Shown: positions 34-50,596 of the stretch, piece after piece
How positions within the stretch are numbered: position 1 is the first letter of the stretch
Layout: the number at the start of each line of letters is the position of its first letter
DNA from: Minisyncoccota bacterium
Lineage (GTDB): Bacteria; Patescibacteriota; Minisyncoccia; Phycocordibacterales; UBA9973
Assembly: GCA_041664465.1 (NCBI GenBank)
Contig: JBAYKP010000002.1
Span: 21,190-85,189, forward strand
Length of the DNA: 64,000 nucleotides
Direction of reading: 5' to 3'
Translations under genes and position numbers: made by a program
Notes under the pieces: model-generated
The model's input: the letters and a program-made list of their open reading frames with translations, nothing else
The model's database searches: none
What the model was told of the DNA's origin: nothing

Positions 34-68
34 ATGTCTGACATAGGGGAATCCCCCATGTCAGACAT
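34..68 (+). promoter_or_regulatory. Intercistronic perfect hairpin (11-bp stem atgtctgacat/atgtcagacat enclosing gggg-aat-cccc) between a presumed upstream gene stop (taa 20-22) and the rplD start
   Basis: Reverse-complement arms read directly from the sequence. The ATG at 34 lies inside the stem. Confidence 0.4.
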
Positions 69-81
69 GTGGACAAACTTT

Positions 82-750
82 ATGGAAACACAAATATACA
101 ACCAAAAAGGTAAGTCTGTTGGTAAGTTTGAACTCCCAGAATCAATCTTTGGTGTGCCTTGGAATGGTGACTTAGTTCACCAAGTAGTGACTGCCATGCA
201 AGCTAATGCTCGCACACCAGTCGCTCATACCAAGGACAGATCTGAAGTTCGTGGAGGAGGTAGAAAGCCTTGGAAGCAGAAAGGTACAGGGCGCGCCAGA
301 CATGGATCATCTCGTTCCCCAATCTGGGTAGGTGGAGGAGTGGCTCACGGACCTAGAAATGAAAAGAGTTATGAACAAAAGATAAACAAAAAGATGAAAG
401 CCAAAGCTCTCTTTACAGTTCTCTCTGAGAAATTCCGAAAAGGGCAAATTATCTTCCTCGAAGAATTAAATCTTAAGAATATCAAAACGAAAGATGCTGT
501 CGCTGTAATAAAAGATTTAAGTTCTTTGAAAGGATTTGAAAAGATGATTGGTGGCAAAAAGCCAAATACATTTATTTCAGTTCCTGCAAAGGGAGATATA
601 GTTAAGAAGAGTTTTGCAAATATACAAACCGTCGAAGTCGATGAAGTTCGCAATATGAATCCAGTAGATTTGCTTGCTTATCGTTATATTATTATCTCAC
701 AGCCTACAGAGAGTATTGCTTTCTTAGGTGGTAAGATAGAAAAAAAGTAA
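82..750 (+). CDS. rplD: 50S ribosomal protein L4
   Basis: Translation carries L4 hallmarks (KPWKQKGTGRARHGS..., GGGVAHGP). An internal ATG at 82 is preferred over the ORF-track start at 34, which lies in the hairpin. Confidence 0.88.
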   Translation: METQIYNQKGKSVGKFELPESIFGVPWNGDLVHQVVTAMQANARTPVAHTKDRSEVRGGGRKPWKQKGTGRARHGSSRSPIWVGGGVAHGPRNEKSYEQKINKKMKAKALFTVLSEKFRKGQIIFLEELNLKNIKTKDAVAVIKDLSSLKGFEKMIGGKKPNTFISVPAKGDIVKKSFANIQTVEVDEVRNMNPVDLLAYRYIIISQPTESIAFLGGKIEKK

Positions 751-751: not shown

Positions 752-1084
752 ATGACTACAACAAAAACAAAAAAGAATAAAGAAGAAGTAGTAGATGACA
801 CAAAGAAATTAAAAACTCATCCTCTAATCAAAGGAGTTCGTGTAACTGAGAAGGCTGCACTTGCAGCTGAGAAGGGAGCATACACTTTCAATGTAGAAGA
901 TAATGCAAACAAGAATGAAATAAAAAAAGCTATTAAATTAATTTATGGAGTAAACCCAGAACGCGTAGCCATAATTCAGATTAAAGAGAAGAAAGTTGTT
1001 CGTCGTGGAAAGATTGGCACAAAAAAGGGAGGCAAGAAAGCGGTCGTATTTTTAAAAAAGGGTGATAAAATAACTATTGCATAA
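752..1084 (+). CDS. rplW: 50S ribosomal protein L23
   Basis: 110 aa, with L23-like motifs and the conserved position after L4. Confidence 0.88.
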   Translation: MTTTKTKKNKEEVVDDTKKLKTHPLIKGVRVTEKAALAAEKGAYTFNVEDNANKNEIKKAIKLIYGVNPERVAIIQIKEKKVVRRGKIGTKKGGKKAVVFLKKGDKITIA

Positions 1085-1937
1085 TATGAAAAAATACAAA
1101 CCAACAACGCCTTCAAAAAGGCACCAAACCACAGTTACTTACAGAAATATTCTAACCAAGAGTGAGCCACTTAAATCTTTAACTCATGGTTTCAAGAGAT
1201 CTGTCGGACGCAACAATCAGGGACGTATTACTGTTCGCCACAAAGGTGGAGGACACAAGAGACTTTATCGTGAAGTGGACTTTATGTACAACAAGCATGA
1301 TATTCCTGCCAAGATAGCTTCTATTGAATATGATCCAAATCGTAATGCATTTATAGGCTTGGCCGTTTATGCAGATGGCGAGAAGCGTTATGTCGTTCTT
1401 CCAAAGTCAGTAAAGGTTGGAGACAAATTTATGGTAAGTGAAAAGGCACCATTAACTGTCGGAAACCGCTTACCACTTAAATATATTCCAGTTGGTACTT
1501 TTGTTTACTGCGTTGAAATCAAGGCAGGGAACGGAGGAAAATTAGCACGTAGTGCAGGAGTGTTCGGACAAGTAGTAGCAAACGACCTAGGATATACAAA
1601 CATCAAAATGCCATCAACAGAAGTCCGCAAAGTTTCTGAGAATGCTTGGGCAAGTATTGGCGAAGTTTCAAACTCTGAATACATACTTCAAAATATAGGT
1701 AAAGCAGGACGTTCTCGCTGGCTCGGAATTCGCCCTACAGTTCGTGGAACTGCTATGAACCCAGTAGACCATCCACACGGTGGAGGGGAAGGACGCCAAG
1801 GACGTGGTCTCCGCAGAGCAAAAACTATGTGGGGTAAGCCATCAGGAAAAGGCCAGAAGACTCGTACTCCAAAGAAATATTCAAATATGTGGGTTGTTTC
1901 AAGAAGAAAAGTTGGAAAGGCAAAGAGTTCAAAATAG
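1077..1937 (+). CDS. rplB: 50S ribosomal protein L2
   Basis: 286 aa. Motifs VRHKGGGHKRLYR and PHGGGEGRQGRG are characteristic of L2. Confidence 0.95.
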   Translation: MHNMKKYKPTTPSKRHQTTVTYRNILTKSEPLKSLTHGFKRSVGRNNQGRITVRHKGGGHKRLYREVDFMYNKHDIPAKIASIEYDPNRNAFIGLAVYADGEKRYVVLPKSVKVGDKFMVSEKAPLTVGNRLPLKYIPVGTFVYCVEIKAGNGGKLARSAGVFGQVVANDLGYTNIKMPSTEVRKVSENAWASIGEVSNSEYILQNIGKAGRSRWLGIRPTVRGTAMNPVDHPHGGGEGRQGRGLRRAKTMWGKPSGKGQKTRTPKKYSNMWVVSRRKVGKAKSSK

Positions 1938-2150
1938 AGACCCCTCAGTCCTACGGACAGCTCCTTACAGGAGCAGTACACCTTTCACATTTTGATTACA
2001 AAACGTTCAAGGTCTTGCGTTTGGGTCCCCTCCCAAACTCACCCCTTAGCAGGGGAGCAAAAACACACCCTAGAGTTAGGGTGTGTTTTGAATTTTCCTC
2101 CCCTGTGAAGGGGAGGTGGCTCTTAGCCGGAGGGGTGTTATAATAAGAAA
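1938..2150. other. GC-rich cluster of short hairpins in an AT-rich genome (ctcct-tac-aggag; acacaccc-tagagtta-gggtgtgt followed by a T-run at 2063-2096; cctcccc-tgtgaa-ggggagg at 2097-2116). Possible terminator or structured RNA after rplB.
   Basis: Inverted repeats read directly. The ORF-track ORFs here (1688-1981, 1780-1995, 1889-2143, 2116-2310) look spurious. Confidence 0.35.
2136..2144 (+). promoter_or_regulatory. Extended -10 (tgttataat) 6 nt upstream of the dgkA ATG; candidate leaderless promoter
   Basis: TGnTATAAT match with short spacing to the ATG at 2151 and no SD. Confidence 0.4.
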
Positions 2151-2528
2151 ATGGAAAAAATTAATGAAAAGAAAAGATTTTCAATTGTGGCGAGGGCGAA
2201 AAGTTTCACTCATGCAATTCGGGGGATTGGGGTATTGGTCAAAAGTACTCACAACTTTTGGATTCATATACTTGCAGCTATCATGGTTACTATTTTGGGT
2301 TATGTTTTAAAAATTTCTAATACAGAATGGATATTACTCGTATTTGCTATTGGTTTCGTAATGGTGACTGAGGCTATCAATACTGCGATAGAGATAGATA
2401 TAGACCTCACAAGTCCTACATACCATCCTTATGCTCGCGATACCAAGGATGTCGCTGCGGGTGCAGTTCTTATATCTGCCATTGTAGCAGTGATTGTAGG
2501 ATTGATAATATTTTTACCAAAAATATAA
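2151..2528 (+). CDS. dgkA: Diacylglycerol kinase / undecaprenol kinase (DgkA family)
   Basis: 125 aa with 3 TM segments. The EAINTAIE ... AAGAVLISAIVAVI block matches the prokaryotic DAGK signature. Confidence 0.8.
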   Translation: MEKINEKKRFSIVARAKSFTHAIRGIGVLVKSTHNFWIHILAAIMVTILGYVLKISNTEWILLVFAIGFVMVTEAINTAIEIDIDLTSPTYHPYARDTKDVAAGAVLISAIVAVIVGLIIFLPKI

Positions 2529-2530
2529 AT

Positions 2531-3337
2531 TTACCTATATTTATTTATTTCATCACGGAGTTTTCTCGCTTCTTCTTTAGGATTATCACTCCATATAATT
2601 GCTCGGGCGGAATTTATTATTAGACCAAGTCCTTCTTTATTCACTCCTTTGGTTATAATATTTTTTACTTCTCCTCCTTGAGCGCCAATACCTGGGACTA
2701 AGAATGTCATATCTTTTGCAATTGCGCGAGCTTCTATGAGATCATCTGGATTGGTGCCTCCCATCACAATCATTAAATTATTATTTGTATTCCATTCATT
2801 GCTAATTTTTTTAACAATGTATTTCCAAAGAGTTTCTTTATTTTCTAAAACGCAATCTTGGAATTCTCCTGCTCCAATGTTTGAAGTTCTAGCAAGAATT
2901 ATGGAGCATTTATCTTTTCTTTCTAGAAAAGGTTTTAAGGCCTCACTTCCTAGATATGGGTTCACTGTCACGGCATCAAATAGAAGCCAATCAAAGATAG
3001 AAGTGGCATAACCATTATTTGTATTTCCTATATCGGCTCTTTTAGCATCAAGAATAGTGAAAGCATCCCCATATTTTGAATTGATATAGTCCACTGTTTT
3101 TTTAAGGGCTTCCATTCCCTCTGTCCCGCGAGCTTCATAGAAAGCTACGTTAGGTTTGAAAGCCGCTGCATATTCATAAGTATTATCAATAATATATTTA
3201 TTGAATTGGAATTGTGCTTCGCTCCCTCCGAGGCTTTTGTATTTCTCAGGCAATTTATCAAAGTCAGCATCAAGGCCAACACATACGAGTGAATTTATTT
3301 TTCTAGCTCTTTCATTATATTTTTCTATAGGATTCAT
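2531..3337 (-). CDS. pyrF: Orotidine 5'-phosphate decarboxylase (type 2)
   Basis: The DAKRADIGNT motif (DxKxxDIxxT) and GLDADF. 268 aa. Confidence 0.82.
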   Translation of the reverse strand: MNPIEKYNERARKINSLVCVGLDADFDKLPEKYKSLGGSEAQFQFNKYIIDNTYEYAAAFKPNVAFYEARGTEGMEALKKTVDYINSKYGDAFTILDAKRADIGNTNNGYATSIFDWLLFDAVTVNPYLGSEALKPFLERKDKCSIILARTSNIGAGEFQDCVLENKETLWKYIVKKISNEWNTNNNLMIVMGGTNPDDLIEARAIAKDMTFLVPGIGAQGGEVKNIITKGVNKEGLGLIINSARAIIWSDNPKEEARKLRDEINKYR

Positions 3338-3364
3338 CCCGTGTGAAATTTATCTATTAATTAT

Positions 3365-4003
3365 TTATTGAAAACCATATTTCTTAGCCCAATTATGTGG
3401 ATTCCCATACCATTTTTTTACCATTACGCCGTCCATTTCTCCAATTACTCCCGAAGAAATTGCTTCACCAAAAATAATAGGGAAAGATGTCGTAGGATAA
3501 AGCTTCACCTTGGCTTTTTTGAAAGCCTCTTTTGCTTCATTAAAATCATAGCTTACAATTACTAAGCAGTCATTTACTATGCCTCCTTCATTGCGGATAG
3601 ATTCAATCCCTGCCAAGCTACTTCCACCAGTAGAAATCAAGTCCTCAATAAGTAAGACTTTTTTACCAGAAACATTACCTCCTTCAATCATACTTTTTGT
3701 CCCGTGCTCTTTGGCCTTTTTCCTGACGAAGATAGAAGGTTTATCCAACAAGAATCCCAAGGCTGCGCTGTGAGGTATACCACCTGATTCAACACCTGCG
3801 ATAATATCAAAATCAATTTTATTTTTCTCTATAATTTCTTTAAAACCATTTAGAACTATTTTCCATTCTTTGGGATGGAATGGAAGCTTCCTATTATCTA
3901 CATAGACTGGCGACTTGATGCCTGACTTGAAAGTTATCGGATTATCAATAGTAAAGCCGACAGCTTTTATTTTTATGAGGGCTTGAGCAATTTCTTTCTC
4001 CAT
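3365..4003 (-). CDS. pyrE: Orotate phosphoribosyltransferase
   Basis: PRPP-binding motif VLLIEDLISTGGS. 212 aa. Confidence 0.88.
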   Translation of the reverse strand: MEKEIAQALIKIKAVGFTIDNPITFKSGIKSPVYVDNRKLPFHPKEWKIVLNGFKEIIEKNKIDFDIIAGVESGGIPHSAALGFLLDKPSIFVRKKAKEHGTKSMIEGGNVSGKKVLLIEDLISTGGSSLAGIESIRNEGGIVNDCLVIVSYDFNEAKEAFKKAKVKLYPTTSFPIIFGEAISSGVIGEMDGVMVKKWYGNPHNWAKKYGFQ

Positions 4004-4012
4004 CAGTTCATA

Positions 4013-5077
4013 TTATAAGTTTTTAATCTCTTCTGCAAGGTAAGGGTTCCACATTGCACCAGTTGCCGACATCACGATATCGGCTCCAGCTTTGCGATAT
4101 TCTTTGAAATCTTCTTTCTTGGTGACTCCGCCCACTCCGATAATAGTGTATTTATAATGGAGTTCTTGGCGAATCTTTCTTAATCTTCTAACCATTTGAA
4201 GTCCTGCCCACTTGATAGAATATCCGCATACTCCACATCGTAGTCTATTCTCCCCGGGCAATGCTTGCTTGCCGTTTCGGTCTACTATACTAGATGCGAT
4301 TGTATTGATCGCTGAGATGCCATCTACAATTTTCCCAACTTGTTTTACAAAATCTTTCAAAAGAGTATTGTCTTCAAAATAGGCAATTTTTATAATAAGA
4401 GGTAATTTGCCGATTTCTTGTTTAATTGCACGGGCTACAGCCACACTACGATCCGTATCAAAGCATAGAAGATTAGTCGTTCCTTCATTGGGGCAACTTA
4501 GATTCACTTCAAAAACTTTTACGCCAGATTCTTTCAGAAGTTTAGCTGTTTTACGAAAATCATTTATGTAAGATTCTACATCACCATCTTCATTTTTAAT
4601 TCCTTGAAATGCTCCGACGACAATCTGTCCCTTCTTGGTATTTTTTATAACATTAGCGATGTCTTTTTGCCAAAACTTTGGATTTAAAGAAGGAACTCCG
4701 AATGAATTTGTTATAGAAAGTGGTTCGTGAAAATTATGATTAGCGATGAGTTTACCCTTTGCTTTTTCTAATGTTAGATCTCCCTTTATGTCGACTGATA
4801 GGATGTTGGGCCACTTATGGCAAGGGAATTCCTTACTACGGACGGTCTTGTAAGTTACAATATCGAAGCCTTTATTTAAAGCTCCTTTTACAAATTTCCC
4901 ATTGATGAGAGGGCCGGCTGGAATACCGAAAGGTGAATACACCTTGTGTCCGAAAAAGTTATATTGTGGTTCACTTTTTTGCTCTACTACTTTTTTATCA
5001 GCAAAATATCCAAACGGCCCATCTTTTAGATTTTCCTCATAAGTTTTTTCTGGATCGTAAAAAGGTTTTTGAAGCAT
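4013..5077 (-). CDS. pyrD: Dihydroorotate dehydrogenase-family flavoprotein
   Basis: NLSCPN motif, glycine-rich FMN-binding C-terminus (IGVGGV), and pyr gene neighbourhood. Confidence 0.72.
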   Translation of the reverse strand: MLQKPFYDPEKTYEENLKDGPFGYFADKKVVEQKSEPQYNFFGHKVYSPFGIPAGPLINGKFVKGALNKGFDIVTYKTVRSKEFPCHKWPNILSVDIKGDLTLEKAKGKLIANHNFHEPLSITNSFGVPSLNPKFWQKDIANVIKNTKKGQIVVGAFQGIKNEDGDVESYINDFRKTAKLLKESGVKVFEVNLSCPNEGTTNLLCFDTDRSVAVARAIKQEIGKLPLIIKIAYFEDNTLLKDFVKQVGKIVDGISAINTIASSIVDRNGKQALPGENRLRCGVCGYSIKWAGLQMVRRLRKIRQELHYKYTIIGVGGVTKKEDFKEYRKAGADIVMSATGAMWNPYLAEEIKNL

Positions 5078-5081
5078 AAAT

Positions 5082-6146
5082 TTATTTATTATTAATTATC
5101 ACACCATTTTCTAAAATTTTCTCTCCATTTATCACGACTGTTTGTGGTTTGCCGTAGAGAGTCATTCCTTCAAAGGGGGACCAGCCGCATTTACTTTCAT
5201 ATCCATTCTTTCCTGCGATATATGAAAGCTTTGGGTCAAGTTCTATATAAGTATCATTCTGATCTGGAATATTGAAAATCTTTTTAGGATTGGTATATAG
5301 AAATTTTATGACTTCCTCATTCGTGATACGTCCATCTTGCACAGCCTTATACATAAGCCCTAACGTCGTCTCAAGTCCGGGGACTCCAAAGGCGGGAGAT
5401 TTGCCGTCTGTCCCTATCTGTTTTTCTTCTTTGGTATGTGGAGCATGATCTGACTCTACTATATCAATAGTGCCATCTTTTAATCCTTCCCACAACGCTT
5501 CTATATCTTCACGATCTCCTAGCGGTGGTTTCATCATAGCGTAGCCCTTTAAATCTTCCAGAGCTTCCTTTGTAAAATATAAATGATGAGGAGTTACTCC
5601 GGCAGTTACTTCCTGCCCTCTTCTCTTTGCTTCTCTTACCATCTCTACTTCGCTTTTTTGTGAAATATGACATACGTGAAGTCTTCTCTTGTATTTGTCT
5701 CCTAGCGAAAGGACTCTCGCAAGTTGCTCTCCTTCAGCGTGGACGAGTATTGGCTTTGGAGAATTCCAATTAGAAAAAACATCTTCAAGTAATTTAGAAT
5801 CTTCAATTAGCATTTCACCTGTTGTATGGTTGCAATAAACTTTTAAGCCAAAGACATTTGGGGATTCTATCGCATAGATAAATTCTTCAATATTTTTTCC
5901 ATTAGTTCCGAAATGAAATCCAATATTACACAAAGCCTTTTCTTTTGATAAGTTAACTTTTTCTTCTAGTCTGATGCGGGATATCGTAGGGGTAGGGTTG
6001 TTCGGCATATCAACGATAAAAGTGAATCCTCCAGCGATAGCAGCTCGACTTCCGGTATAGAAATCTTCTTTATGGGTGCTCCCTGGTTCGCGTAGATGAA
6101 CGTGGATATCAATTAATCCCGGAATCTTTTGTAATGACATAGACAC
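5082..6146 (-). CDS. pyrC: Dihydroorotase
   Basis: N-terminal metal-binding motif DIHVHLREPG and an amidohydrolase-fold pattern. 354 aa. Confidence 0.82.
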   Translation of the reverse strand: MSMSLQKIPGLIDIHVHLREPGSTHKEDFYTGSRAAIAGGFTFIVDMPNNPTPTISRIRLEEKVNLSKEKALCNIGFHFGTNGKNIEEFIYAIESPNVFGLKVYCNHTTGEMLIEDSKLLEDVFSNWNSPKPILVHAEGEQLARVLSLGDKYKRRLHVCHISQKSEVEMVREAKRRGQEVTAGVTPHHLYFTKEALEDLKGYAMMKPPLGDREDIEALWEGLKDGTIDIVESDHAPHTKEEKQIGTDGKSPAFGVPGLETTLGLMYKAVQDGRITNEEVIKFLYTNPKKIFNIPDQNDTYIELDPKLSYIAGKNGYESKCGWSPFEGMTLYGKPQTVVINGEKILENGVIINNK

Positions 6147-6196
6147 ATATTACCATTTTTGCTAAAAAAGCAAAAAACCATGGGGATATAAGTGGG

Positions 6197-6225
6197 TTGA
6201 CTTTTATTTTAGATTTGATAGTATG
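6197..6225 (+). promoter_or_regulatory. Candidate sigma-70 promoter (ttgact - 16/17 nt - tagtat) restarting transcription of rpsS..rplE after the convergent pyr block
   Basis: Motif match only. Confidence 0.35.
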
Positions 6226-6273
6226 AATCAACAGCTCGTTTGAGCTTATTTATATTGCAAAACATTAAAACAA

Positions 6274-6618
6274 ATGACAAGATCACTAAAGAAAGGACCA
6301 TATGTAGATGAAAGGCTTTTGAAAAAGATTGCCGGAAAGAAACCACTTGAAACTGGCGTTATTAAGACTTGGTCTCGTGCCTGCGTCATCTCACCAGAGA
6401 TGGTTGGTTTCGTATTTGGAGTCCATAATGGTAAGGTTCATGTAGAAGTACTCGTCAGTGAAGATATGGTAGGTCACCGACTTGGTGAATTCTCTCTCAC
6501 TCGTAAGTTCGTCCGACACGGAGGTAAGATGCAGAAAGAACTTGAAGCAAAGAAGAAAGAATCAGAGATAACCGCAGCAAAGTCAGCTAAAGCCGCAACA
6601 GATACTAAGAAAAAATAA
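6274..6618 (+). CDS. rpsS: 30S ribosomal protein S19
   Basis: [12 protein letters not shown] ... HNGK motifs. Confidence 0.95.
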
Positions 6619-9576: not shown

Positions 9577-9592
9577 TTTAGATTACTTTAAA

Positions 9593-9617
9593 ATACCCCC
9601 AAACGGGGGTATTTTTG
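9593..9617 (+). terminator. Rho-independent terminator (taccccc-aaac-gggggta + T-run)
   Basis: Hairpin plus T-tract directly after rplE. Confidence 0.7.
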
Positions 9618-9677
9618 TAGATAAGCTTATATCATAATGGTTTACCGAAGCAAGGCTTCGGTGGGGTATAAATATTT

Positions 9678-9899
9678 TTATATTTCTTTCATTATATTTT
9701 TAATTTTTAGCGATTCGTACATCTTTTTACTGAAAACCTCTTTTAAGAAAGCTGTAGTTTTCTTCTTCCCTTTATACCAGATGAAACCTAAAATGATAAG
9801 GAATGTAGTACCTGGCACAGGAGTGAAATAAAACACTATACCCACTATTATAAATATGATTCCAAGTATTTTGTGTATTTTTATTGACCTTTCTTTCAT
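9678..9899 (-). CDS. Small 2-TM membrane protein, hypothetical
   Basis: Hydrophobic ORF. The overlapping plus-strand ORF 9637-9831 is less protein-like. Confidence 0.35.
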   Translation of the reverse strand: MKERSIKIHKILGIIFIIVGIVFYFTPVPGTTFLIILGFIWYKGKKKTTAFLKEVFSKKMYESLKIKNIMKEI

Positions 9900-9931
9900 A
9901 ATGATTTGATTATAACACTATTTATAGTAAC

Positions 9932-10624
9932 TTAGTCTATATTTGAAATCCAATTTTTAAAATTATCTATAAATATACCCTCTTTAAGCATTTCTAGTTG
10001 GTGTGGTAGATGGGTCCATGAGATATGAGTTTTAATATTTTGTTCTTTTAGTAGCTTTATAAGTTTTCTGCCATTTGAAACGGGAATCACAACATCATTT
10101 TTAGACAAGATTATGTTGAATTCAGTATTGTGACTTTTCCTTTTAAAATAATGATCGGGAGATATCTCAGCCCAAACTTTTTTAAGTTTAGAAAGAGTAG
10201 TTTTGTAATCTTGTATCATTTTATTTTTTAATTTCTGAGTACTTGCACCTTTCCAGAACGCTTCAGCCAAGTTATACCCTGGGACGATAAGCATAACTTT
10301 CTCCATTTTTATTTTATCTGAGACTATCATACAGAATAATCCTCCCAAACTTTGTCCATACATATAGAAATAGCGGGGCTTTTTATTTTTAAGACCACTC
10401 AAATCTTTTATTATTGTATTTATTAAATGCTCGAAATTGTCTTTTGTTTTAAGTGGATCAGGGCAAAGTATTTTGTCTGGATAGGCATACTGGATGTACC
10501 CATAATCCTTTGGTATAGATTTCCTCATAAGAAAATACAAAGATTCATATGAAGACCATCCATCCAATAATATTATGATTTTCTCTTGGTGTAGTCTGTC
10601 TTTTATCTTTGTAATTTTATACAT
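9932..10624 (-). CDS. Alpha/beta-fold hydrolase (esterase-like)
   Basis: GQSLGG nucleophile elbow (GxSxG). 230 aa. Confidence 0.55.
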   Translation of the reverse strand: MYKITKIKDRLHQEKIIILLDGWSSYESLYFLMRKSIPKDYGYIQYAYPDKILCPDPLKTKDNFEHLINTIIKDLSGLKNKKPRYFYMYGQSLGGLFCMIVSDKIKMEKVMLIVPGYNLAEAFWKGASTQKLKNKMIQDYKTTLSKLKKVWAEISPDHYFKRKSHNTEFNIILSKNDVVIPVSNGRKLIKLLKEQNIKTHISWTHLPHQLEMLKEGIFIDNFKNWISNID

Positions 10625-10783
10625 ATGTTTATTATATATATTCTTAGCTATTTCTACAAATAAAATTATATACTAGCCCTAAGCCACGCTTATGACTGGT
10701 ATTTTTTGTTGACAAATTTTCAAGGGGGGTGTATACCTCGGGTATAAGGCTCATTTCAATATATTTCATTTAATTTTTTTAAA

Positions 10784-11017
10784 ATGAAAACCAAAAAGTT
10801 TTTCTTTTATGTTTTTTTTGGAGCCCAACTAATCGGGCTCGGTGGTTTTTTGGGGAAAATCATTTACGATGGGGTGCAAAATTTTCAAAGTGCCTCAATC
10901 GGAGGTAATGTCTCCAAAGAAACCATTACAACTCTGGGCGTTCTGTTTTTTGTTGGCTTTGCAGGTTTTCTTGCAAGCAACAAGCTTGTAGACCAGTTGA
11001 ATAAACTGGAAAACTAA
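10784..11017 (+). CDS. Small membrane protein, hypothetical
   Basis: 77 aa with two hydrophobic segments. Confidence 0.35.
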   Translation: MKTKKFFFYVFFGAQLIGLGGFLGKIIYDGVQNFQSASIGGNVSKETITTLGVLFFVGFAGFLASNKLVDQLNKLEN

Positions 11018-11233
11018 AATAGGAAGCCTAAATGGGAAAAAGCGGGTGGATGAAATATTTCACCTGCTTTTTTAATTATAGGATGGATGGGTACAGAAAT
11101 TTGACATAAATACGTTCATTTGCTAGTATAAGGGAATTCGGTATTGAGCTGATCTGTGTTTCTCCTTAAGACATTTGTTGATGTTTTAAGAAATGACACA
11201 TGATATCGCCTTATCGGGTAAAGCATTTTATTT

Positions 11234-11419
11234 ATGGCAAAAACATCAGTAACAGCTAGACATTTAAAGAAGTCAAAGTTTAGTACACGAGAAACAAATC
11301 GTTGTTTTCGCTGTTCCCGCGGGCATGCATATATGCGAGACTTCGGTCTCTGTCGTATTTGCTTCCGTGAATTAGCAAACGAAGGGATGCTTCCGGGGGT
11401 CAGAAAATCAAGTTGGTAA
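11234..11419 (+). CDS. rpsZ: 30S ribosomal protein S14, zinc-binding type Z
   Basis: 61 aa with CxxC...CxxC (CFRCSRG ... CRIC). Confidence 0.9.
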
Positions 11420-15239: not shown

Positions 15240-15836
15240 ATGATAAACAAACCACAAACATTTATATTTTATGGGATAGCAGGTTCGGGTAAGGGTACCC
15301 AAGTAAAACTTTTACAAAATGTTTTGAAAGCCAAAGATGGTATGGATACGGTATATGGAGCACCCGGCAATGAATTTAGAAAACTTGTTGAAAGTGGCAA
15401 TCTTACAGGGTCTACTCTGAAAGATGCTATGGAAGCGGGTCTTCTTTTGCCAGATTTTTTACCTAATACTGTTTTTGCTGATATTTTAATTTCTGAATTA
15501 ACAACAGATAAACATTTAATTGCAGATGGTTTCCCTCGTACAGTGGTTCAATCTGAAAATTTTGAGGAGATGATGAAATTTTATAATCGTGAGAATATAA
15601 AAGTTATTTATATAGAACTTAGCAAAGAAGAAGCAATAAAGAGAATGAAGATTCGTGCTAGACCAGATGATACTGATGAAGGAATTGCAAAAAGATTTGA
15701 TGAATATGTAAAAAATATTATTCCTTCTATGAATTATTTCAAAGATAAAGAGAATTATAAAATGTATATGATAAATGGAGAACAATCCATAGAAGATGTC
15801 CATAAAGAAATTATTACTAAATTAAACTTAATCTAA
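15240..15836 (+). CDS. adk: Adenylate kinase (short form)
   Basis: P-loop GIAGSGKGTQ. 198 aa. Confidence 0.85.
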   Translation: MINKPQTFIFYGIAGSGKGTQVKLLQNVLKAKDGMDTVYGAPGNEFRKLVESGNLTGSTLKDAMEAGLLLPDFLPNTVFADILISELTTDKHLIADGFPRTVVQSENFEEMMKFYNRENIKVIYIELSKEEAIKRMKIRARPDDTDEGIAKRFDEYVKNIIPSMNYFKDKENYKMYMINGEQSIEDVHKEIITKLNLI

Positions 15837-15840: not shown

Positions 15841-16539
15841 ATGCCAGAAACAAAAACAGAGAAAGAAACAATCGTGATATCGCTTGGGGGGTCTATTGTA
15901 GTACCGGATTTACCGAATGGAGAATTTGTAAAAGCTTTCAAAGAAATAATTTTACATTTTGTAGAAAAGGGTAAAAAGTTTGTAATAATCGTAGGTGGAG
16001 GCAAGACTTGCAGACGTTATAATGAAGCCTTAAGTAATGCCACAGAAGTTATCAATGAAGATCTGGATTGGCTTGGTATATATACTACTCGCCTCAATGC
16101 AGAACTTGTCAGACTTTCTTTTGGTAAAAAGGCGGCGGATAGAATTCTGATAGATCCAAGTATAATAAAAGATTTCAATGACGACGTCGTTATTGGTGCT
16201 GGGTGGAAGCCTGGGAATTCTACAGATGCAGTTGGGATTATGATTGCGAAGGAACTTGGTACAAAAAAGGTAGTTAATATTTCAAATATTGATTATATTT
16301 ATGATAGTGATCCGAAAATAAATGAGGATGCCAAGAAGTTTGAGAATATTTCATGGGCAGAATATCGTTCTTTTATATCTTCCGTTTGGAAGCCAGGTAT
16401 GAACACTCCTTTTGACCCTATTGCTTCAGAGAAAGCAGAGGAGGGAGGCATAGAAGTTGCTTTCATGTCAGGGCACAATCTAGAAAGTCTTGAGAATTAT
16501 CTAAAAGGAGAGCATTTTGTAGGAACAATCATAAAGTAA
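15841..16539 (+). CDS. pyrH: Amino-acid-kinase-fold protein, likely archaeal-type UMP kinase
   Basis: ISLGGSIV ... IIVGGGK pattern and 232 aa length. Function assigned by family resemblance only. Confidence 0.5.
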   Translation: MPETKTEKETIVISLGGSIVVPDLPNGEFVKAFKEIILHFVEKGKKFVIIVGGGKTCRRYNEALSNATEVINEDLDWLGIYTTRLNAELVRLSFGKKAADRILIDPSIIKDFNDDVVIGAGWKPGNSTDAVGIMIAKELGTKKVVNISNIDYIYDSDPKINEDAKKFENISWAEYRSFISSVWKPGMNTPFDPIASEKAEEGGIEVAFMSGHNLESLENYLKGEHFVGTIIK

Positions 16540-16613: not shown

Positions 16614-18362
16614 ATGGAATCACAAACTAAAGTGTGTCAAAATTGTAAGCTTAATTTCACAATTGAGCCAGATGATTTTTCATTTTACGAAAAGATAAAA
16701 GTCCCTCCACCAACTTGGTGCCCTTATTGTAGGTTTATACGTAAAATGACATTTATTAACGAGCGTTCTCTTTATAAAAGAGTTTGTGATAATTGTAGTC
16801 AGTCTATGATATCTATGTATAGCCCTGATATACCACTTCCTGTTTGGTGCAATAAATGTCATATAAGTGATACTTGGGACGGAACTATATATAGTAGAGA
16901 TTATGATTTCTCTAGAAATTTTTTTGAACAATATAAAAAATTAAAATATGATGTTCCTCATAGGGCGCTTGATCAAAACGAGCGAAATGGCGAAGGGTGT
17001 GAGTATTCCAATCTATGTTACACCAGTAAAAACATATATTTATCTTTTAATATTATTGGTTCTGAAAATCTTAAGTATTCGGCACATGCTTTTAAGAATA
17101 ATAAAAATTGTTTAGATTCACTTATTTTTAAAAATAATGATAGGGGGTATGAGCTTGTTCAGGCTATTTCTAATTACAACTCATCTTTTTTAATTGAAAG
17201 TGACCAATGTGTAGATTCACATTTCCTTTATGATTGTTCTAATTGTGTTAATTGTTGTTTATCTTCAAATCTTCGAAATAAAAGTTATTTTTTTCAAAAT
17301 CAACAGTTATCGCGTGAAGAATATAAAAAGGCAGTTATGGCGCTTAGACTTGAGACATATTCTGGGCAATTAAATACTAAGAATATTTTTATGCAAATAG
17401 CAAAAGATGCAATTCATAAATACGCGCATATAAAGAATTCAGTAGATGTTATTGGAGATTTTATTGAAAATTCAAAAAATATTTACCATTGCTATGGTCT
17501 TGTAGATGCTATAAATACTAAATATGTATTTTTTGCAGTAAATACAATTGTAGATTCTCAAGATGTAATATTTGCAGGAAAAGTAGAGGAGTGCTATGAG
17601 TTTACTCTTGGTGGTAGGGGAGCTAGTCGTGTAATTTTATCTTTTAGTTGTTCTGGGGGGTGCAAGGATCTATTCTATTGTGATTCGTGTATGAGTTGTT
17701 CAGATTGTTTTGGCTGTGTAGGGTTAAAAAAGAAACAGTATTATATTTTTAATAAACAATATAAGAAGGAAGAGTATTTTGAAATGGTTAAGAAAATTAA
17801 ACAACACATGAATGATATGCCTTATATAGATAAGATTGGTAGAATATATAGCTTTGGGGAATGTTTCCCTACAGAACTTTCTCCTTTTGCTTACAATGAA
17901 ACTCTTGCTTTTAAAGAGAATTTTATCTCAAAAGAAGAAGTAATCTCTTTGGGATATAAATGGAAAGAAATGGAATCAAAGTTATATACTCCAACACTTA
18001 AAACAGATTCTGTGCCAGAGAGTATTAATGATGCTCTAGACACTATTTGTAATGAGATTATTGAGTGTCCCAATCAAGGCAAAGTAGATACACAATGCAC
18101 TTCAGCTTATAAAATATTACCAGATGAGTTAGCATTTTATAGACAAATGAATCTTCCAATACCTAGGTATTGTCCGAATTGTAGATATCACAATCGTTTA
18201 ATTTGGAAGAATCTTTTTCACTTTTACAAACGACAATGTATGTGTAATTCATCAAATCATAATCATAAAGGAAAATGTCAGAATGAATTTGAGACATTGT
18301 ATGCTCCCGACAGAGAAGAATTAATTTATTGTAAAGAATGTTATCAACAGGAAGTGTATTAA
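16614..18362 (+). CDS. Cysteine-rich paralog 1 (582 aa, about 37 Cys), unknown family. Has N- and C-terminal CPxCR zinc-ribbon-like modules and internal CxxCxxC clusters.
   Basis: Shares an N-terminal CQNCKxxFTIEPDDFSFYEKIKVPPPTWCPxCR block, a central KHMNDMPYIDKxGRIYxxGExFPxELSPFAYNET block and a C-terminal CQNEFETxYAPDRxExxYCxxCYQ block with the ORFs at 18401 and 29308. Confidence 0.7.
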   Translation: MESQTKVCQNCKLNFTIEPDDFSFYEKIKVPPPTWCPYCRFIRKMTFINERSLYKRVCDNCSQSMISMYSPDIPLPVWCNKCHISDTWDGTIYSRDYDFSRNFFEQYKKLKYDVPHRALDQNERNGEGCEYSNLCYTSKNIYLSFNIIGSENLKYSAHAFKNNKNCLDSLIFKNNDRGYELVQAISNYNSSFLIESDQCVDSHFLYDCSNCVNCCLSSNLRNKSYFFQNQQLSREEYKKAVMALRLETYSGQLNTKNIFMQIAKDAIHKYAHIKNSVDVIGDFIENSKNIYHCYGLVDAINTKYVFFAVNTIVDSQDVIFAGKVEECYEFTLGGRGASRVILSFSCSGGCKDLFYCDSCMSCSDCFGCVGLKKKQYYIFNKQYKKEEYFEMVKKIKQHMNDMPYIDKIGRIYSFGECFPTELSPFAYNETLAFKENFISKEEVISLGYKWKEMESKLYTPTLKTDSVPESINDALDTICNEIIECPNQGKVDTQCTSAYKILPDELAFYRQMNLPIPRYCPNCRYHNRLIWKNLFHFYKRQCMCNSSNHNHKGKCQNEFETLYAPDREELIYCKECYQQEVY

Positions 18363-18400: not shown

Positions 18401-20170
18401 ATGGATTATAAACCAGAAAATAGAATATGTCAGAATTGTAAGAAAGACTTCACTATTGAGCCAGACGATTTTTCATTTTATGAGAAGATGAAAGTCCCTC
18501 CGCCAACTTGGTGTCCTGAATGTCGTTTTCAAAGAAGGTGTCTTTTCCGTAACGAAAGAAAACTTTTCCGAAATATAGATGGAGTTACTGGTAAGCCAAT
18601 ATTTTCACTTTTTCCATTGGAGGCACATTTTCCAATTTATGAAGATAGTTATTGGGCAAGTGATAATTGGGACCCATTTTCTTATGGGATGGACTTTGAT
18701 AGGTCACGACCATTTTTAGCCCAACTCTTAGAGTTGAATTCAAAGGTACCACGTCCTCGCTCTGATGCTATAAATATGGTAAGAAGTGAATATTCTGCAA
18801 ATGCTGCAGACTTAAAAGATTGTTATTTGATTTTTAATTCAAGCTATACAGAAGATTCAGCATATGGAAATGCCAATGATTATTGCAAAAATTGCTTTGA
18901 TAATTCTCATATTCAAAATTCAGAGAAATGTTATGAATCATTTTGGCTTACTAAATGTTATGATACACATTTTTCTTCACAATGCGAGGATTGTGTTTCA
19001 GTTTGGTTTAGTAAAAATTGTCGTGGATGTACGGATTGTTTTGGCTGTGTAAACTTAACAAATAAATCTCATTGCTTTTTCAATCAATCTTTATCAAAAG
19101 AAGAATACAAAGAAAAGATAAAATCACTTGATTTTTCAAAATGGTCAAATCTCGAAAGAATAAAAAAACAAGTTGGAAAAATATGGTTGAATTTTCCTGT
19201 TAGATATCTTCAAGGTATTAAAAATTATTTATCTGATGGCGAATATGTTGCTTATTCAAAAAATGTTCGTCATAGCTACTTAGTTCGAGGGGGAGAAAAT
19301 CTTGCCTATGTGCAATATGTTCAAGTTCCATCATTAAAAGATTCTATGGATGTTATTGTGGGTGGTTGTAATAGTGAGTTAGTATATGAATCTTCAGCTT
19401 GTGGTTGGGATTCTTCACAAATTCGTTTTAGTATTGAGTGTTGGGACGGGGGAATGGATTTTGAATACAGTATGTTTTGTGGAAAGAAAGCCAGTCATAC
19501 ATTTGGTAGTATTAGTATTTGTAGTGGGGAATATGTTATTTTAAATAAAAGATATTCCAAAGAAGAATTTTATAAACTTAGAGATGAAATACGTAAGCAT
19601 ATGGATGAAATGCCATATATAGATAAAAATGGACGTATTTATAAATATGGCGAATTTCTTCCACCTGAGTTTTCCCCTTTTGCATACAACGATACGATAA
19701 CTCCGGAACATTTTCCTTTATCAAAAGAAGAAATAATCTCCTATGGTGCCAATTGGTATGAGATACCAAAAGTTGATTATGAAACAACAATGAAAGCCAA
19801 AGATATACAGGATGATATAAATGATGTATCGGAAGGTATTTTAAAAGAGATTATTTCTTGTGATAAATGTAATCGTGCTTATAGAATAATTCCTTCCGAA
19901 TTACAATTTTTAAAACAAAACCATATTCCAGTTCCTCGTAGTTGTGTGAATTGTCGTCATGATTTACGTATTTCACAAAGAAATAAAAGTAAACTGTATA
20001 AAAGAAAATGTAATTGTAATGGGAACAATTCAACAAATAATAAATATAAAAATGAAATCAGACATTCCCATGACACCGAAGCTTGCCAAAACGAATTTGA
20101 AACATCTTACTCCCCAGATAGACCAGAGATAGTGTATTGCGAAAAGTGCTATCAGCAAGAAATTTATTGA
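18401..20170 (+). CDS. Cysteine-rich paralog 2 (589 aa), same unknown family
   Basis: Conserved N-terminal, central and C-terminal blocks with 16614 and 29308. Confidence 0.7.
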   Translation: MDYKPENRICQNCKKDFTIEPDDFSFYEKMKVPPPTWCPECRFQRRCLFRNERKLFRNIDGVTGKPIFSLFPLEAHFPIYEDSYWASDNWDPFSYGMDFDRSRPFLAQLLELNSKVPRPRSDAINMVRSEYSANAADLKDCYLIFNSSYTEDSAYGNANDYCKNCFDNSHIQNSEKCYESFWLTKCYDTHFSSQCEDCVSVWFSKNCRGCTDCFGCVNLTNKSHCFFNQSLSKEEYKEKIKSLDFSKWSNLERIKKQVGKIWLNFPVRYLQGIKNYLSDGEYVAYSKNVRHSYLVRGGENLAYVQYVQVPSLKDSMDVIVGGCNSELVYESSACGWDSSQIRFSIECWDGGMDFEYSMFCGKKASHTFGSISICSGEYVILNKRYSKEEFYKLRDEIRKHMDEMPYIDKNGRIYKYGEFLPPEFSPFAYNDTITPEHFPLSKEEIISYGANWYEIPKVDYETTMKAKDIQDDINDVSEGILKEIISCDKCNRAYRIIPSELQFLKQNHIPVPRSCVNCRHDLRISQRNKSKLYKRKCNCNGNNSTNNKYKNEIRHSHDTEACQNEFETSYSPDRPEIVYCEKCYQQEIY

Positions 20171-20259: not shown

Positions 20260-21024
20260 ATGAATATCATTATAAAGACAAAAGAACAAATAGAGATTAT
20301 ACGAGAAGGGGGGAAGATTTTGGCGGAGGTATTGAAGAAGGTGGCTAAAAAAGTATCTCCGGGGATTTCGACATACGAACTTGATAAATATGCGTACGAT
20401 TTGATAAAAGAGAAGAGTGGAATCCCAGCATTTTTGAATTACAGGCCAGAAGGTGCACCGAAAGCTTTTCCTGCTTCTATATGTATATCAGTGAATAATG
20501 AAGTTGTTCATGGTATTCCTAGTAAGAATAAAATTTTGAAAGAAGGAGATATTGTCTCTCTTGATTTAGGACTCAAATACAAAGGGCTCTTCACTGACCA
20601 TGCTGTGACTGTGCCCGTGGGGAAGATTTCAAAGAAGGACCAGGATTTGCTCGATAAGACGAAGAAAGCCCTAGAAATAGGCATTTGGGCAGCTCGTGGA
20701 GGGGCTACAGTGGGTGACGTTGGTCACGCCATAGAATCATTTGTGAATAGGAAATATGGCATAGTTCGCGAGCTTTCAGGGCATGGTGTAGGGGTGAAAA
20801 TTCACGAAGATCCATATGTGCCGAACTATGGTAAAGCTGGTAAAGGGCAGAAATTAATTCCAGGAATGATTATAGCCATTGAGCCAATGCTAAATATTGG
20901 AAAGGACAATATAACTGTTGCCAATGATGATTGGACTATTAAAACAGCCGATGGCTCTCATTCTGCTCATTTTGAGCATACGATTCTCATTACCGAAGGT
21001 GACGCGGAAATATTAACTAAGTAA
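20260..21024 (+). CDS. map: Methionine aminopeptidase type I
   Basis: Metal-ligand pattern (D..D..H..E..E) and typical MAP-I sequence. The ORF-track start at 20203 adds 19 non-conserved residues. Confidence 0.88.
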   Translation: MNIIIKTKEQIEIIREGGKILAEVLKKVAKKVSPGISTYELDKYAYDLIKEKSGIPAFLNYRPEGAPKAFPASICISVNNEVVHGIPSKNKILKEGDIVSLDLGLKYKGLFTDHAVTVPVGKISKKDQDLLDKTKKALEIGIWAARGGATVGDVGHAIESFVNRKYGIVRELSGHGVGVKIHEDPYVPNYGKAGKGQKLIPGMIIAIEPMLNIGKDNITVANDDWTIKTADGSHSAHFEHTILITEGDAEILTK

Positions 21025-21146
21025 AAACACTCCATAAAAACATTCTCAGACTCACCACACAATAAAATTCTGCTGAATTTTTTGCTCGCACTCGGCCCGT
21101 CGGCCTGCGTGAGGGTTCGCTTGAGAACATTTTTTATTTCGTGTTT
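21023..21146 (+). repeat. Palindromic repeat element copy A (about 124 bp, starts inside the map stop codon)
   Basis: About 97% identical to 61522-61644. The core matches 31957-32040 and 48461-48542. Terminal arms aaaaacattctcagactcacc / ggttcgcttgagaacattttt are inverted repeats. Confidence 0.8.
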
Positions 21147-21260: not shown

Positions 21261-21337
21261 TAAGGGCAGAAATATTCAGGAGAGCTATTCAAAAAATCTA
21301 GATACCAACATTTATAGATCATTTTTTCTTTTTCTTG

Positions 21338-21346
21338 TGGTATAAT
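21338..21346 (+). promoter_or_regulatory. Extended -10 (tggtataat) 6 nt upstream of the ATG at 21353
   Basis: Motif and spacing. Confidence 0.45.
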
Positions 21347-21352
21347 AAAACT

Positions 21353-32526: not shown

Positions 32527-32952
32527 TTATTGAAAACTAATTTCAAATGGATACATTCCCATACCGCAGGAGCCGTTTAGGGTGCCGGCTGGTTGTGTAC
32601 TGAGGTCTATATCTGTACTTCCTGATTGTGGGAGACTTTTAAAGATATTCATAGAAGGAATTCTGACAGAAGAAGAGCAATCAAAAGTTCCATTTGTGTT
32701 AAATCTTAAAATTGTAGGAATTCCTGCCTTTGCAATACTTTTCCTTGGTTGGTAACCACCTTTAGCATTTATCTCTATAATTTGTTTACCATCTACTACC
32801 GAAACATTCTTTATAGAAGTTTCTTGTGTTGTTCCAGTACTATTATTACTAGAATCATTTGATTGATTACTTGTTTTTCCACTCGTAAGAACAATAGCAA
32901 ATATAATTAATGCCGCTGATACTACTATTGAGATGATTGTGTTTTTTGTCAT
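32527..32952 (-). CDS. Cupredoxin-like domain membrane-anchored protein
   Basis: C-terminal GSCGMGMYPFEI resembles the cupredoxin-like Y-x-C-x3-H/x-x2-M motif. Paralog of 44140-44499. Confidence 0.45.
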   Translation of the reverse strand: MTKNTIISIVVSAALIIFAIVLTSGKTSNQSNDSSNNSTGTTQETSIKNVSVVDGKQIIEINAKGGYQPRKSIAKAGIPTILRFNTNGTFDCSSSVRIPSMNIFKSLPQSGSTDIDLSTQPAGTLNGSCGMGMYPFEISFQ

Positions 32953-32953
32953 T

Positions 32954-34015: not shown

Positions 34016-34061
34016 AAAAAAATACCTTTTACAATTAAGTATTTATCTACATAAAATATTA

Positions 34062-34086
34062 TATACCCCCTAGGGGTATATGTCAA
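34062..34086 (-). promoter_or_regulatory. CsoR-type operator palindrome (tatacccc-cta-ggggtata) lying between ttgaca (-35) and an AT-rich -10 on the minus strand
   Basis: Near-identical palindromes at 34782-34806 and 44792-44818. Resembles the published Bacillus CsoR operator (TACCC...GGGGTA). Confidence 0.6.
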
Positions 34087-34088
34087 TA

Positions 34089-44135: not shown

Positions 44136-44139
44136 ATAA

Positions 44140-44499: not shown

Positions 44500-44517
44500 A
44501 TATTTTTATTAAATTAA

Positions 44518-44781: not shown

Positions 44782-44791
44782 ATAAAACATC

Positions 44792-44818: not shown

Positions 44819-44880
44819 AGGGAGGGTAGGAAGATGGTGAGTAAAGGAAATTCAAATATTTTGTGGTAATATATGAGTAT

Positions 44881-47858: not shown

Positions 47859-47863
47859 CAATT

Positions 47864-50565: not shown

Positions 50566-50596
50566 AATATTAGTATAGCAAAAAATTACAATTTTG

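Follow-up and report, generated by a model that had tools for sequence, protein, structure and literature searches.

Pyrimidine biosynthesis genes in a clade-specific break of the S10 ribosomal protein operon of Paceibacteria

In the canonical S10 operon the genes for ribosomal proteins follow one another in the order rpsJ-rplC-rplD-rplW-rplB-rpsS-rplV-rpsC-rplP-rpmC-rpsQ. The Bacillus subtilis operon for de novo pyrimidine synthesis has the order pyrR-pyrP-pyrB-pyrC-pyrAA-pyrAB-pyrK-pyrD-pyrF-pyrE. CPR (candidate phyla radiation) bacteria are generally described as being without nucleotide synthesis (PMC4742961, PMC12455944), and the synthesis of inosine monophosphate (IMP) from phosphoribosyl pyrophosphate (PRPP) has been reported for Paceibacteria (PMC9166423). 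Our search of the literature found no paper joining CPR, pyrimidine and dihydroorotate. Here we describe a stretch of 64,000 nucleotides (the window) from a Minisyncoccota bacterium (GenBank assembly GCA_041664465.1, contig JBAYKP010000002.1, positions 21,190 to 85,189), in which dgkA and the four pyrimidine genes pyrF, pyrE, pyrD and pyrC lie between rplB and rpsS. The locus consists of known biosynthetic genes placed in a clade-specific, signal-flanked break of the S10 operon, and its nucleotide capacity is notable, not unprecedented.

Genes were called from the listing of open reading frames (ORFs) together with Pfam and NCBIfam scans of the 64-kb window (Table 1). In place of the contiguous S10 arrangement, 4,336 bp separate rplB from rpsS, and on both sides of this break the order rplD-rplW-rplB ... 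rpsS-rplV-rpsC-rplP-rpsQ is kept, as judged from ORFs, Pfam and tblastn. Compared with the canonical operon, gene content and order flanking the break are retained, whereas the clade to which the window belongs has a terminator after rplB, a promoter and leader of its own before rpsS, and 0.2-10 kb of variable cargo in between. The cargo of the window begins with dgkA, whose product matches PF01219 over its full length (115.4 bits, profile positions 2-102 of 102) and belongs to that family. On the opposite strand pyrC, pyrD, pyrE and pyrF are tightly packed, with spacers of 4, 9 and 27 nt, so that these four genes of the de novo pathway to uridine monophosphate (UMP; KEGG M00051-type) are all present in the window. 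The genes dgkA and pyrF are convergent, with stop codons 2 nt apart. Translation of pyrC probably begins at the ATG at 6140 rather than at the GTG at 6146, because the PyrC proteins of relatives have 352 aa. These calls bear out a first-pass annotation of the window, made from its letters and ORFs, which had described dgkA and an opposite-strand pyr block interrupting rplB-rpsS. As in B. subtilis, the pyrimidine genes are clustered in an operon; here no pyrR, pyrP or pyrK was seen, the order is pyrC-D-E-F, the pathway appears to be spread over two loci and the putative promoter stands back-to-back with that of a ribosomal protein operon.

To place the break among bacteria, we measured how far the rpsS start lies from the rplB stop in every fetched locus holding both genes. 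The gap spans 165-10,477 bp in all 15 loci (14 distinct lineages and one duplicate) whose rplB is at least 63% identical to that of the window, and at most 159 bp in all 64 remaining bacterial loci, which include other CPR lineages (L019, L049, L062; metagenome-assembled genomes, MAGs, named Yanofskybacteria, Buchananbacteria and Kerfeldbacteria). Among species-representative genomes the best rplB matches, at 63-83% identity, are MAGs labelled Paceibacterota, Kaiserbacteria, Zambryskiibacteriota, Minisyncoccia and Patescibacteria; in ordinary bacteria the identity is at most about 56%. Because these nearest rplB relatives and the named PyrD homologues (Paceibacterota, Nomurabacteria or Pacebacteria) carry Paceibacteria-type labels, the organism is indeed CPR-like, a condition that the first-pass annotation had put with an "if", and of the class Paceibacteria. 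The gap holds dgkA alone in L001, MazE/MazF-like ORFs in L004, a 1007-aa protein and an IS200/RAYT-like gene in L011, and assorted small ORFs in further genomes of the clade. The split of S10 at rplB/rpsS is a property of a Paceibacteria clade and no one-off insertion: the most conserved bacterial operon is constitutively split in one clade, and variable cargo lands in the gap.

Sequence signals are conserved at either edge of the gap. In most relatives a homologous A-run, GC hairpin and T-run lies directly 3' of the rplB stop, and by strict criteria a terminator-like hairpin is present there in 8 of 13 independent lineages, compared with a dinucleotide-shuffle mean of 0.93 and maximum of 4. 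In the window this signal stands within a GC-rich spacer of 213 nt, about 150 nt of which are particular to the window's species, wrapped around the ancestral rplB terminator and missing from L082, L084 and L001 in the alignment. None of 200 shuffles of the spacer was equally stable, and its two ends pair together. The GC-rich hairpin and terminator zone of the first-pass annotation is a structured element which includes a 13-bp terminator hairpin, and that terminator is conserved in relatives. No second copy of the spacer exists elsewhere in the window. A scan of the whole window with Rfam at the gathering threshold gave no match for the spacer or for the rpsS leader, and relaxing the search of 1850-6400 to E = 1 produced two spacer matches only (E 0.26 and 0.79, far below gathering scores) and none in the leader. 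The spacer may be an insertion peculiar to this species, or else a small structured RNA.

At the other edge, the promoter which the first-pass annotation had proposed as restarting rpsS was recovered by a promoter scan, and 13 of the 14 clade loci have the motif TTGAC-N16-19-TAnn[AT]T upstream of rpsS. In L084 promoter and leader are conserved although they lie downstream of pyrB, from which it follows that rpsS would have its own start whatever stands upstream. The leader opens with a hairpin at a constant position, four to eight nt after the -10 box across lineages, with stems that differ from lineage to lineage (AGCTC/GAGCT, TTGCCG/CGGCAA, TGAGCC/GGCTCA, AACGCC/GGCGTT, CCCGC/GCGGG). A T-rich tract follows the hairpin, which is terminator-like in 9 of 13 lineages; over 300 shuffle rounds the mean was 0.59 and no round gave more than 3. 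The hairpin could act as an early attenuator or as a 5'-terminal stabiliser against 5'-end-dependent decay; for the latter option we point to the RNase J homologue encoded in the window.

The cargo genes have candidate promoters as well. The -10 box of dgkA and its 6-nt spacing are conserved in four genomes (the window, L082, L084 and L001), and the putative extended -10 of pyrCDEF, TGGTAATAT, is identical in the aligned L082 and L083. Considering that these boxes end 6 nt before the ATG and that the dgkA and pyrC starts are without a Shine-Dalgarno sequence, the sequence suggests that both mRNAs are leaderless. The divergent region between pyrC and rpsS measures 127 bp to the GTG at 6146 and 133 bp to the preferred ATG at 6140, and within it the putative pyrCDEF and rpsS promoters are back-to-back, about 40 bp apart. 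We may speculate that promoters so close to each other would let pyrimidine and ribosomal-protein synthesis answer the same signals, tying the supply of UMP to ribosome production. Between dgkA and pyrF, which converge, no terminator was found, and the two transcripts may therefore run into each other.

Close relatives have the same arrangement with different insertions. In L082 and L083 the order is rplB-dgkA-TPR gene-[pyrF pyrE pyrD pyrC]-rpsS, with ribosomal proteins 95-100% (rplB of L082, 96%) and pyr proteins 90-95% identical to those of the window. In L084, L085 and L088 (rplB 93%, PyrD 86% identical) it is rplB-dgkA-221-aa ORF-[pyrFEDC]-carA-carB-pyrB-rpsS, which in L084 brings the entire de novo pyrimidine pathway inside the gap, and in L001 (rplB 83% identical) simply rplB-dgkA-rpsS. 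The gap has three variable slots, namely rplB/dgkA, where the window alone has its extra nucleotides (about 150), dgkA/pyrF, where the window and L082 differ by a clean 1.5-kb indel, the TPR gene of L082, and pyrC/rpsS. When the L082 TPR protein, the L084 221-aa protein, GuaA, GuaB and PurA were searched against the window by tblastn, only chance matches were returned. The metagenomic source and the repeats and hairpins flanking the region might raise the suspicion of a chimeric assembly or a binning artefact. This explanation is refuted and retains practically no probability: the same junctions are present in the independent assemblies L081, L082, L083, L084, L085 and L088, which come from different samples and pipelines (JGI, ENA, Logan, NCBI), and the indel relative to L082 has conserved flanks.

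The arrangement was inherited within a genus-level group, since the close relatives L082 and L084 share it, and it is probably derived, since the gap of L001 has dgkA only and three further lineages keep pyrCDEF in a nucleotide island. The first-pass annotation had set a shared, ancestral and vertically inherited arrangement against its own view of an insertion: the sharing was found, the ancestral state was not. The synteny comparison which it proposed has a similarly divided outcome, close relatives having the layout of the window and the outgroup L001 and the three island lineages differing from it. In those lineages (L086/L087/L089, the P0012 contig and L115) PyrD is 77-79% identical to the window's, and the layout of L086, P0012 and L115 is RmuC-guaB-purA-pyrC-pyrD-pyrE-pyrF-guaA, then a few genes, an AI-2E transporter, HI0933-like, dnaX, pyrB and carB. 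The window shares these four pyr genes and their order (75-84% protein identity), whereas its block sits in the rplB/rpsS gap, apart from guaB, purA and guaA, and in the window lineage carAB-pyrB stays at the Dus/dnaX site (L105, presumed L107). Contig L105, from the same metagenome and Logan run as L082, reads Dus, then carA-carB-pyrB-dnaX-HI0933-AI-2E, then purL-purQ-purF-purN-purD. These purine genes of the sister species, downstream of carAB-pyrB at 14413-20918 of L105, indicate that de novo purine synthesis is probably present in the window/L082 group too.

The simplest reading of these layouts is that pyrCDEF reached the gap by intragenomic relocation within the lineage and not from outside the CPR. 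In a first step, pyrCDEF would have left the nucleotide island and landed beside dgkA in the common ancestor which the window shares with L082 and L084; in a second, restricted to the L084 lineage, carAB-pyrB would have moved into the same gap. The second move has direct support, as the Dus/dnaX site of L110, a contig from the same metagenome as L088, is vacated: it lacks carAB-pyrB and has a Y1/RAYT-like transposase gene and two small ORFs. The gene right after pyrB at the end of L107 is 93% identical to the L110 transposase over its first 29 residues, and the rplB/rpsS gap of L011 contains another homologue. IS200/RAYT-like Y1 transposase genes hence occur at three rearrangement junctions (L107 10976-11062, L110 6233-6946, L011 14055-14747), with no RAYT-like gene in the window, which hints at transposases of this type as the mechanism of relocation. 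In L112 (DnaX 91% identical) Dus and dnaX are directly adjacent with no pur or gua genes nearby, a difference implying that nucleotide-synthesis genes were gained, lost or moved among close relatives. Should the two steps be right, pyrimidine genes entering the gap one group after the other within one genus would form a natural series for the study of pathway-gene relocation and clustering.

Horizontal acquisition of the pyr genes, which the first-pass annotation had raised, was weighed as a recent gain of the block, with or without dgkA, from a non-CPR donor. Such a gain would account for the break in an otherwise universal gene pair, for the closest outgroup L001 being without the block and for the RAYT-like Y1 transposase genes at related junctions. 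Several results speak against it. The nearest 120 PyrD clusters (67-94% identity) are Paceibacteria or Patescibacteria wherever they are named, as are all named nearest PyrB clusters, the named neighbours of both proteins together covering 62-94% identity. The GC content of the block (0.33-0.42 against a window mean of 0.353) reveals no compositional anomaly, the pyr proteins rank the relatives (L082 > L084 > L086) exactly as the ribosomal proteins do, and sister lineages have the identical four-gene order at another place in the chromosome. Two contigs of more distant Paceibacteria-like origin (L092, L099) hold complete carAB-pyrB-C-D-E-F clusters with the same PyrD type. A foreign origin is largely refuted by these results and we hold it to be very improbable.

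Given that the window encodes the last four steps of UMP synthesis, we looked for the first ones elsewhere. In agreement with the first-pass annotation, which had placed carAB/pyrB and a partner gene of PyrD outside the window, neither tblastn with the proteins of relatives nor Pfam scans of all large ORFs detected carA, carB or pyrB in the 64 kb. The exact PyrC, PyrD and PyrE of the window are present on Logan contig L081 of run SRR6484324, and the same run yields a carB-pyrB contig (L108) bearing the PyrB P0125. This PyrB is also found on a 42-kb ENA contig, L107, with the order topA-dprA-serS-POTRA-Dus-carA-carB-pyrB. The DNA identity between L107 and L105, the matching locus from L082's sample, is 89.7%; between the window and L082 it is 89.8-90.0% in the pyr-to-rplN and rplB blocks and 84-93% when every aligned block is counted. 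Because L107 and L108 share the run and have the expected divergence, carAB-pyrB would be at a second locus rather than missing; L107 probably belongs to the window's species and the UMP pathway is probably complete. Of the genes that the first-pass annotation had suggested seeking in the rest of the genome, carAB and pyrB were accordingly located in the same run, and for PyrK no related domain was found in the window by Pfam scans of the large ORFs.

The genome might instead keep only the last four steps, having lost carAB-pyrB, and salvage carbamoyl-aspartate, dihydroorotate or orotate from a host. Such a truncated pathway would agree with the 64 kb being without carA, carB and pyrB, with L084 having carAB-pyrB between pyrC and rpsS, where the window has only about 130 bp, and with L112, in which Dus lies next to dnaX without carAB-pyrB. 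It is nonetheless unlikely when set against the carA-carB-pyrB locus found in the same run as the exact pyr genes of the window, with an identity of 89.7% to L105 that matches the approximately 90% between the window and L082, and against the sister species L082, which displays the two-locus layout within a single metagenome. Moreover, the good conservation of pyrC, none of whose catalytic residues is lost, argues for carbamoyl-aspartate made in the cell. De novo pyrimidine synthesis had been called noteworthy should the organism prove to be CPR-like; it is CPR, and the finding is only moderately noteworthy, IMP synthesis having been reported for Paceibacteria (PMC9166423) and full pyrimidine clusters being common in the class (L092, L099). 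With a UMP pathway that appears to be encoded whole, the window lineage adds to the evidence that some Paceibacteria need no host for nucleotides.

The most divergent enzyme of the block is PyrD. Dihydroorotate dehydrogenases (DHODHs) of class 1A are fumarate-dependent homodimers (Lactococcus lactis PyrDa, Trypanosoma cruzi DHOD), those of class 1B have a PyrK electron-transfer subunit (FAD / 2Fe-2S) usually encoded beside pyrD, and class 2 has a serine as catalytic base. The assignment of the window's protein is based on Pfam, fold, active-site residues and operon context. None of the NCBIfam pyrD models comes near its cutoff (at best 71.7 against 269). With 47.6 bits against a cutoff of 301 it falls outside the class 1A model NF002702, and with 55.5 against 200, and a cysteine as base, outside the class 2 model TIGR01036; no PyrK gene adjoins pyrD in any of at least 8 contexts. 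A single-sequence search of the PDB gave 45 bits only, and the profile of a 53-member family gave 91.2 bits to the C-terminal half of the L. lactis DHODB PyrD and 81.5 to dihydropyrimidine dehydrogenase (DPD). In an exhaustive search the subfamily comprised about 410 clusters at 50% identity with E up to 1e-30, and most of the best matches are near full-length, the N-terminal extension of about 40 aa included; the clusters of distant family representatives yielded hardly any names. The AF2 model (pLDDT 95.1) has DHODHs of classes 2 and 1A as its top Foldseek matches (TM 0.61-0.81, 19-22% identity). Across the 53 family members C195 (in NLSCPN), P196, N197, K230 and N258 are invariant and K77, N124 and N192 are at least 90% conserved; we take the Lys and Asn positions to align with those which in class 1 enzymes, on the example of L. 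lactis DHODA, bind flavin and orotate.

Compared with class 1A, PyrD shares the cysteine base in SCPN and the absence of an adjacent PyrK gene, and it is this class which gives the best superposition among the listed Foldseek matches (target-normalised TM 0.80-0.81, rmsd about 3 Å). It differs from class 1A in being only 19-22% identical, in its N-terminal extension of some 40 residues and in forming a subfamily of its own; with no solved DHODH does its identity exceed 22%. From sequence and model we conclude that PyrD would be a dihydroorotate dehydrogenase with class-1 chemistry which lies outside every curated class. That it represents a fourth class of DHODH typical of Paceibacteria, perhaps with a non-canonical electron acceptor, is a tentative proposal which we think may well be wrong; if the acceptor were non-canonical, this would explain the only redox step of pyrimidine synthesis in fermentative CPR bacteria without quinones or a respiratory chain. 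The divergent DHODH is in any case the part of the locus most likely to be hiding something new.

A different function of PyrD and PyrC was weighed, namely that they are the DPD-like and dihydropyrimidinase-like enzymes of reductive pyrimidine degradation. The PyrD family profile does give 81.5 bits to DPD, not much less than the 91.2 bits to DHODH B, and PyrC also matches hydantoinase and dihydropyrimidinase models, below their cutoffs. DHODH carries SCPN where DPD carries SCPH, and PyrD has SCPN with an invariant Asn. The top Foldseek matches are DHODHs, pyrC and pyrD form a tight operon with pyrE and pyrF in every context seen and adjoin carAB-pyrB in L084, L092 and L099, and PyrC scores above the cutoff of the dihydroorotase model TIGR00857 and has 41% identity to the dihydroorotase (DHOase) domain of CAD. 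A role in degradation is rejected as hardly credible, and we retain the assignment of both enzymes to pyrimidine synthesis.

The TIGR00857 score of PyrC is marginal (281.1 against 279.05), and the first 50 or so profile positions, which represent the N-terminal beta-sandwich part, are missing; definitions and features of the dihydroorotase subtypes are described in PMC9771888. The best PDB match is the human CAD DHOase domain (272 bits), which aligns as a single stretch of 337 residues with 41% identity, while bacterial type I dihydroorotases give about 180 bits and align in two pieces. PyrC has the metal-binding His and Asp, and the Lys of GLKVY aligns with the carboxylated-lysine (KCX) position of CAD. 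PyrC shares with CAD dihydroorotase (PDB 4C6C family) the short N-terminal extension and the HxH, GLK, AHAE, CH and DHAPH motifs; unlike it, PyrC is a free-standing protein of 352 aa, unfused to carbamoyl phosphate synthetase (CPSase) or aspartate transcarbamoylase (ATCase) and without the long C-terminal linker of CAD. Since bacterial NCBIfam models without solved structures score similarly (e.g. PRK07575, 275 bits), we do not claim a special evolutionary link between PyrC and CAD, and their closeness may reflect which structures have been solved. The locus offers two enzymes for biochemistry, a DHODH subfamily without a solved or characterised member and a free-standing dihydroorotase with 41% identity to the domain of human CAD.

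We consider it highly probable that the locus as a whole is an S10 operon split into two units, with a gap that tolerates cargo, pyrCDEF relocated into it within the lineage and the first steps of the pathway encoded at a second locus. The first ribosomal unit would be transcribed as far as the intrinsic terminator after rplB, and the second would be read rightward from its own sigma-70-type promoter, giving an mRNA which begins with a short stem-loop and continues from rpsS onward. The space between them would accommodate cargo that varies by genome; in the window dgkA would be read from its own TATAAT box and pyrCDEF leftward from the extended -10. PyrC, PyrD, PyrE and PyrF would then convert carbamoyl-aspartate via dihydroorotate, orotate and orotidine monophosphate (OMP) into UMP, and the carA, carB and pyrB steps would be supplied from the second locus of the same genome.

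Several observations weigh against this reading. The promoters, the function of the terminator and the leaderless starts are deduced from consensus sequence. The leader hairpin of the window is weak, with -6.3 kcal/mol and, taking the 65-nt leader as a whole, z = -0.6, and RNAalifold predicts no pairs on a MAFFT alignment of ten rpsS leaders. The lack of a consensus structure arises because loops of 3, 4 and 5 nt put the hairpins in different registers in MAFFT, and leader hairpins were therefore counted per lineage against shuffles instead of being folded from the alignment. PyrD is too divergent for an NCBIfam assignment. With carAB and pyrB outside the window, L107 and L108 are attributed to this species by co-occurrence in a sample and matching divergence, not by physical linkage, and the direction of relocation follows from parsimony over few lineages, with no species tree.

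Table 1. Coordinates of genes and sequence signals in the window
Feature	Coordinates	Strand	Basis
rplD	34-750	+	ORF/Pfam
rplW	752-1084	+	ORF/Pfam
rplB (L2), last gene of upstream S10 half	1077-1937	+	PF00181, PF03947
GC-rich structured spacer, 213 nt	1938-2150	+	Minimum free energy -98.1 kcal/mol, z = -7.7
Intrinsic-terminator-like hairpin and T-run ending the rplB unit	2060-2089	+	13-bp stem
Putative TATAAT -10 box of dgkA, ends 6 nt before ATG	2139-2144	+	Read from sequence
dgkA, prokaryotic diacylglycerol/undecaprenol kinase family, 125 aa	2151-2528	+	PF01219, E 1.2e-33
pyrF, type-2 OMP decarboxylase	2531-3337	-	TIGR02127, 230.1 bits, above cutoff 110.6
pyrE, orotate phosphoribosyltransferase	3365-4003	-	TIGR00336, 126.2, above cutoff 106.8
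pyrD-like, divergent dihydroorotate dehydrogenase, 354 aa	4013-5077	-	PF01180, 77 bits
pyrC, dihydroorotase	5082-6146, preferred start 6140	-	TIGR00857, 281.1 vs cutoff 279.05
Putative extended -10 TGGTAATAT of pyrCDEF, ends 6 nt before ATG at 6140	6155-6147	-	Read from sequence
Sigma-70-type promoter TTGACT-16 nt-TG-n-TAGTAT for rpsS-rplV-rpsC-rplP onward	6197-6224	+	Promoter scan
Leader hairpin AGCTC-GTTT-GAGCT then T-rich tract	6233-6246	+	Starts ~8 nt after -10 box
rpsS (S19), first gene of downstream S10 half	6274-6618	+	PF00203, E 1.7e-32
adk, adenylate kinase	15240-15836	+	PF00406
pyrH, archaeal-type UMP kinase directly after adk	15841-16539	+	TIGR02076, 176.3 vs cutoff 158.05
ndk, nucleoside-diphosphate kinase, 194 aa	24156-24740	+	PF00334, E 1e-34
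RNase J homologue	25860-27230		Cited with the 5'-stabiliser option

Further downstream, the UMP kinase after adk and the more distant ndk named in the first-pass annotation were both recovered. The UMP kinase scores only 43 bits on the bacterial pyrH model TIGR02075. In the ndk product the NDK domain is matched in two stretches separated by an insertion of about 45 residues. Two of three paralogous proteins of 573-589 aa with a Cys-rich C-terminus (16614-18362, 18401-20170 and 29308-31029; no Pfam or NCBIfam match) are encoded in tandem between pyrH and map, within the ribosomal/secY/adk/map cluster. The ribosomal cluster has a second break at 9577-11233, where rplE is separated from an rpsN of the Zn type (61 aa, 11234-11419) by 1.66 kb of DNA with a low GC content (0.29-0.32). 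This interval carries a minus-strand ORF for a hydrolase-like protein of 230 aa (9932-10624) and small membrane ORFs, and L082 has only about 170 bp in its place.

A family of GC-rich palindromic repeats has four copies in the window (21022-21139, 61521-61638, 31951-32040 and 48433-48569). Two are intergenic and 95% identical, and two lie inside ORFs without breaking the frame, one separating Pfam domains I and II of the phosphoglucomutase gene and one the DEAD and Helicase_C domains of recG; the in-ORF copies look like the in-frame Rickettsia palindromic elements. ARAGORN identified a tRNA-Ile with anticodon TAT (47786-47859) and a tRNA-Ser with the unusual anticodon ACT (50775-50864), and a second tRNA-Ser (GCT, 50596-50683) is found on the strand opposite to the latter. 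A VirD4/TraG-like type IV coupling protein of 916 aa is encoded at 21335-24085, its ATPase region matching TrwB, T4SS-DNA_transf and TraG-D_C and its long N-terminal region having no match. Two clusters are related to metal handling, one at 32527-34472 with a CopA-type P-type ATPase, a cupredoxin-like protein and a CsoR-type repressor, and one at 41901-45057 with an HMA-DsbD-like membrane protein, a second cupredoxin and a DUF302 protein. The palindromic motif TATACCCCTAGGGGTATA occurs three times near these clusters, at 34051, 34771 and 44782.

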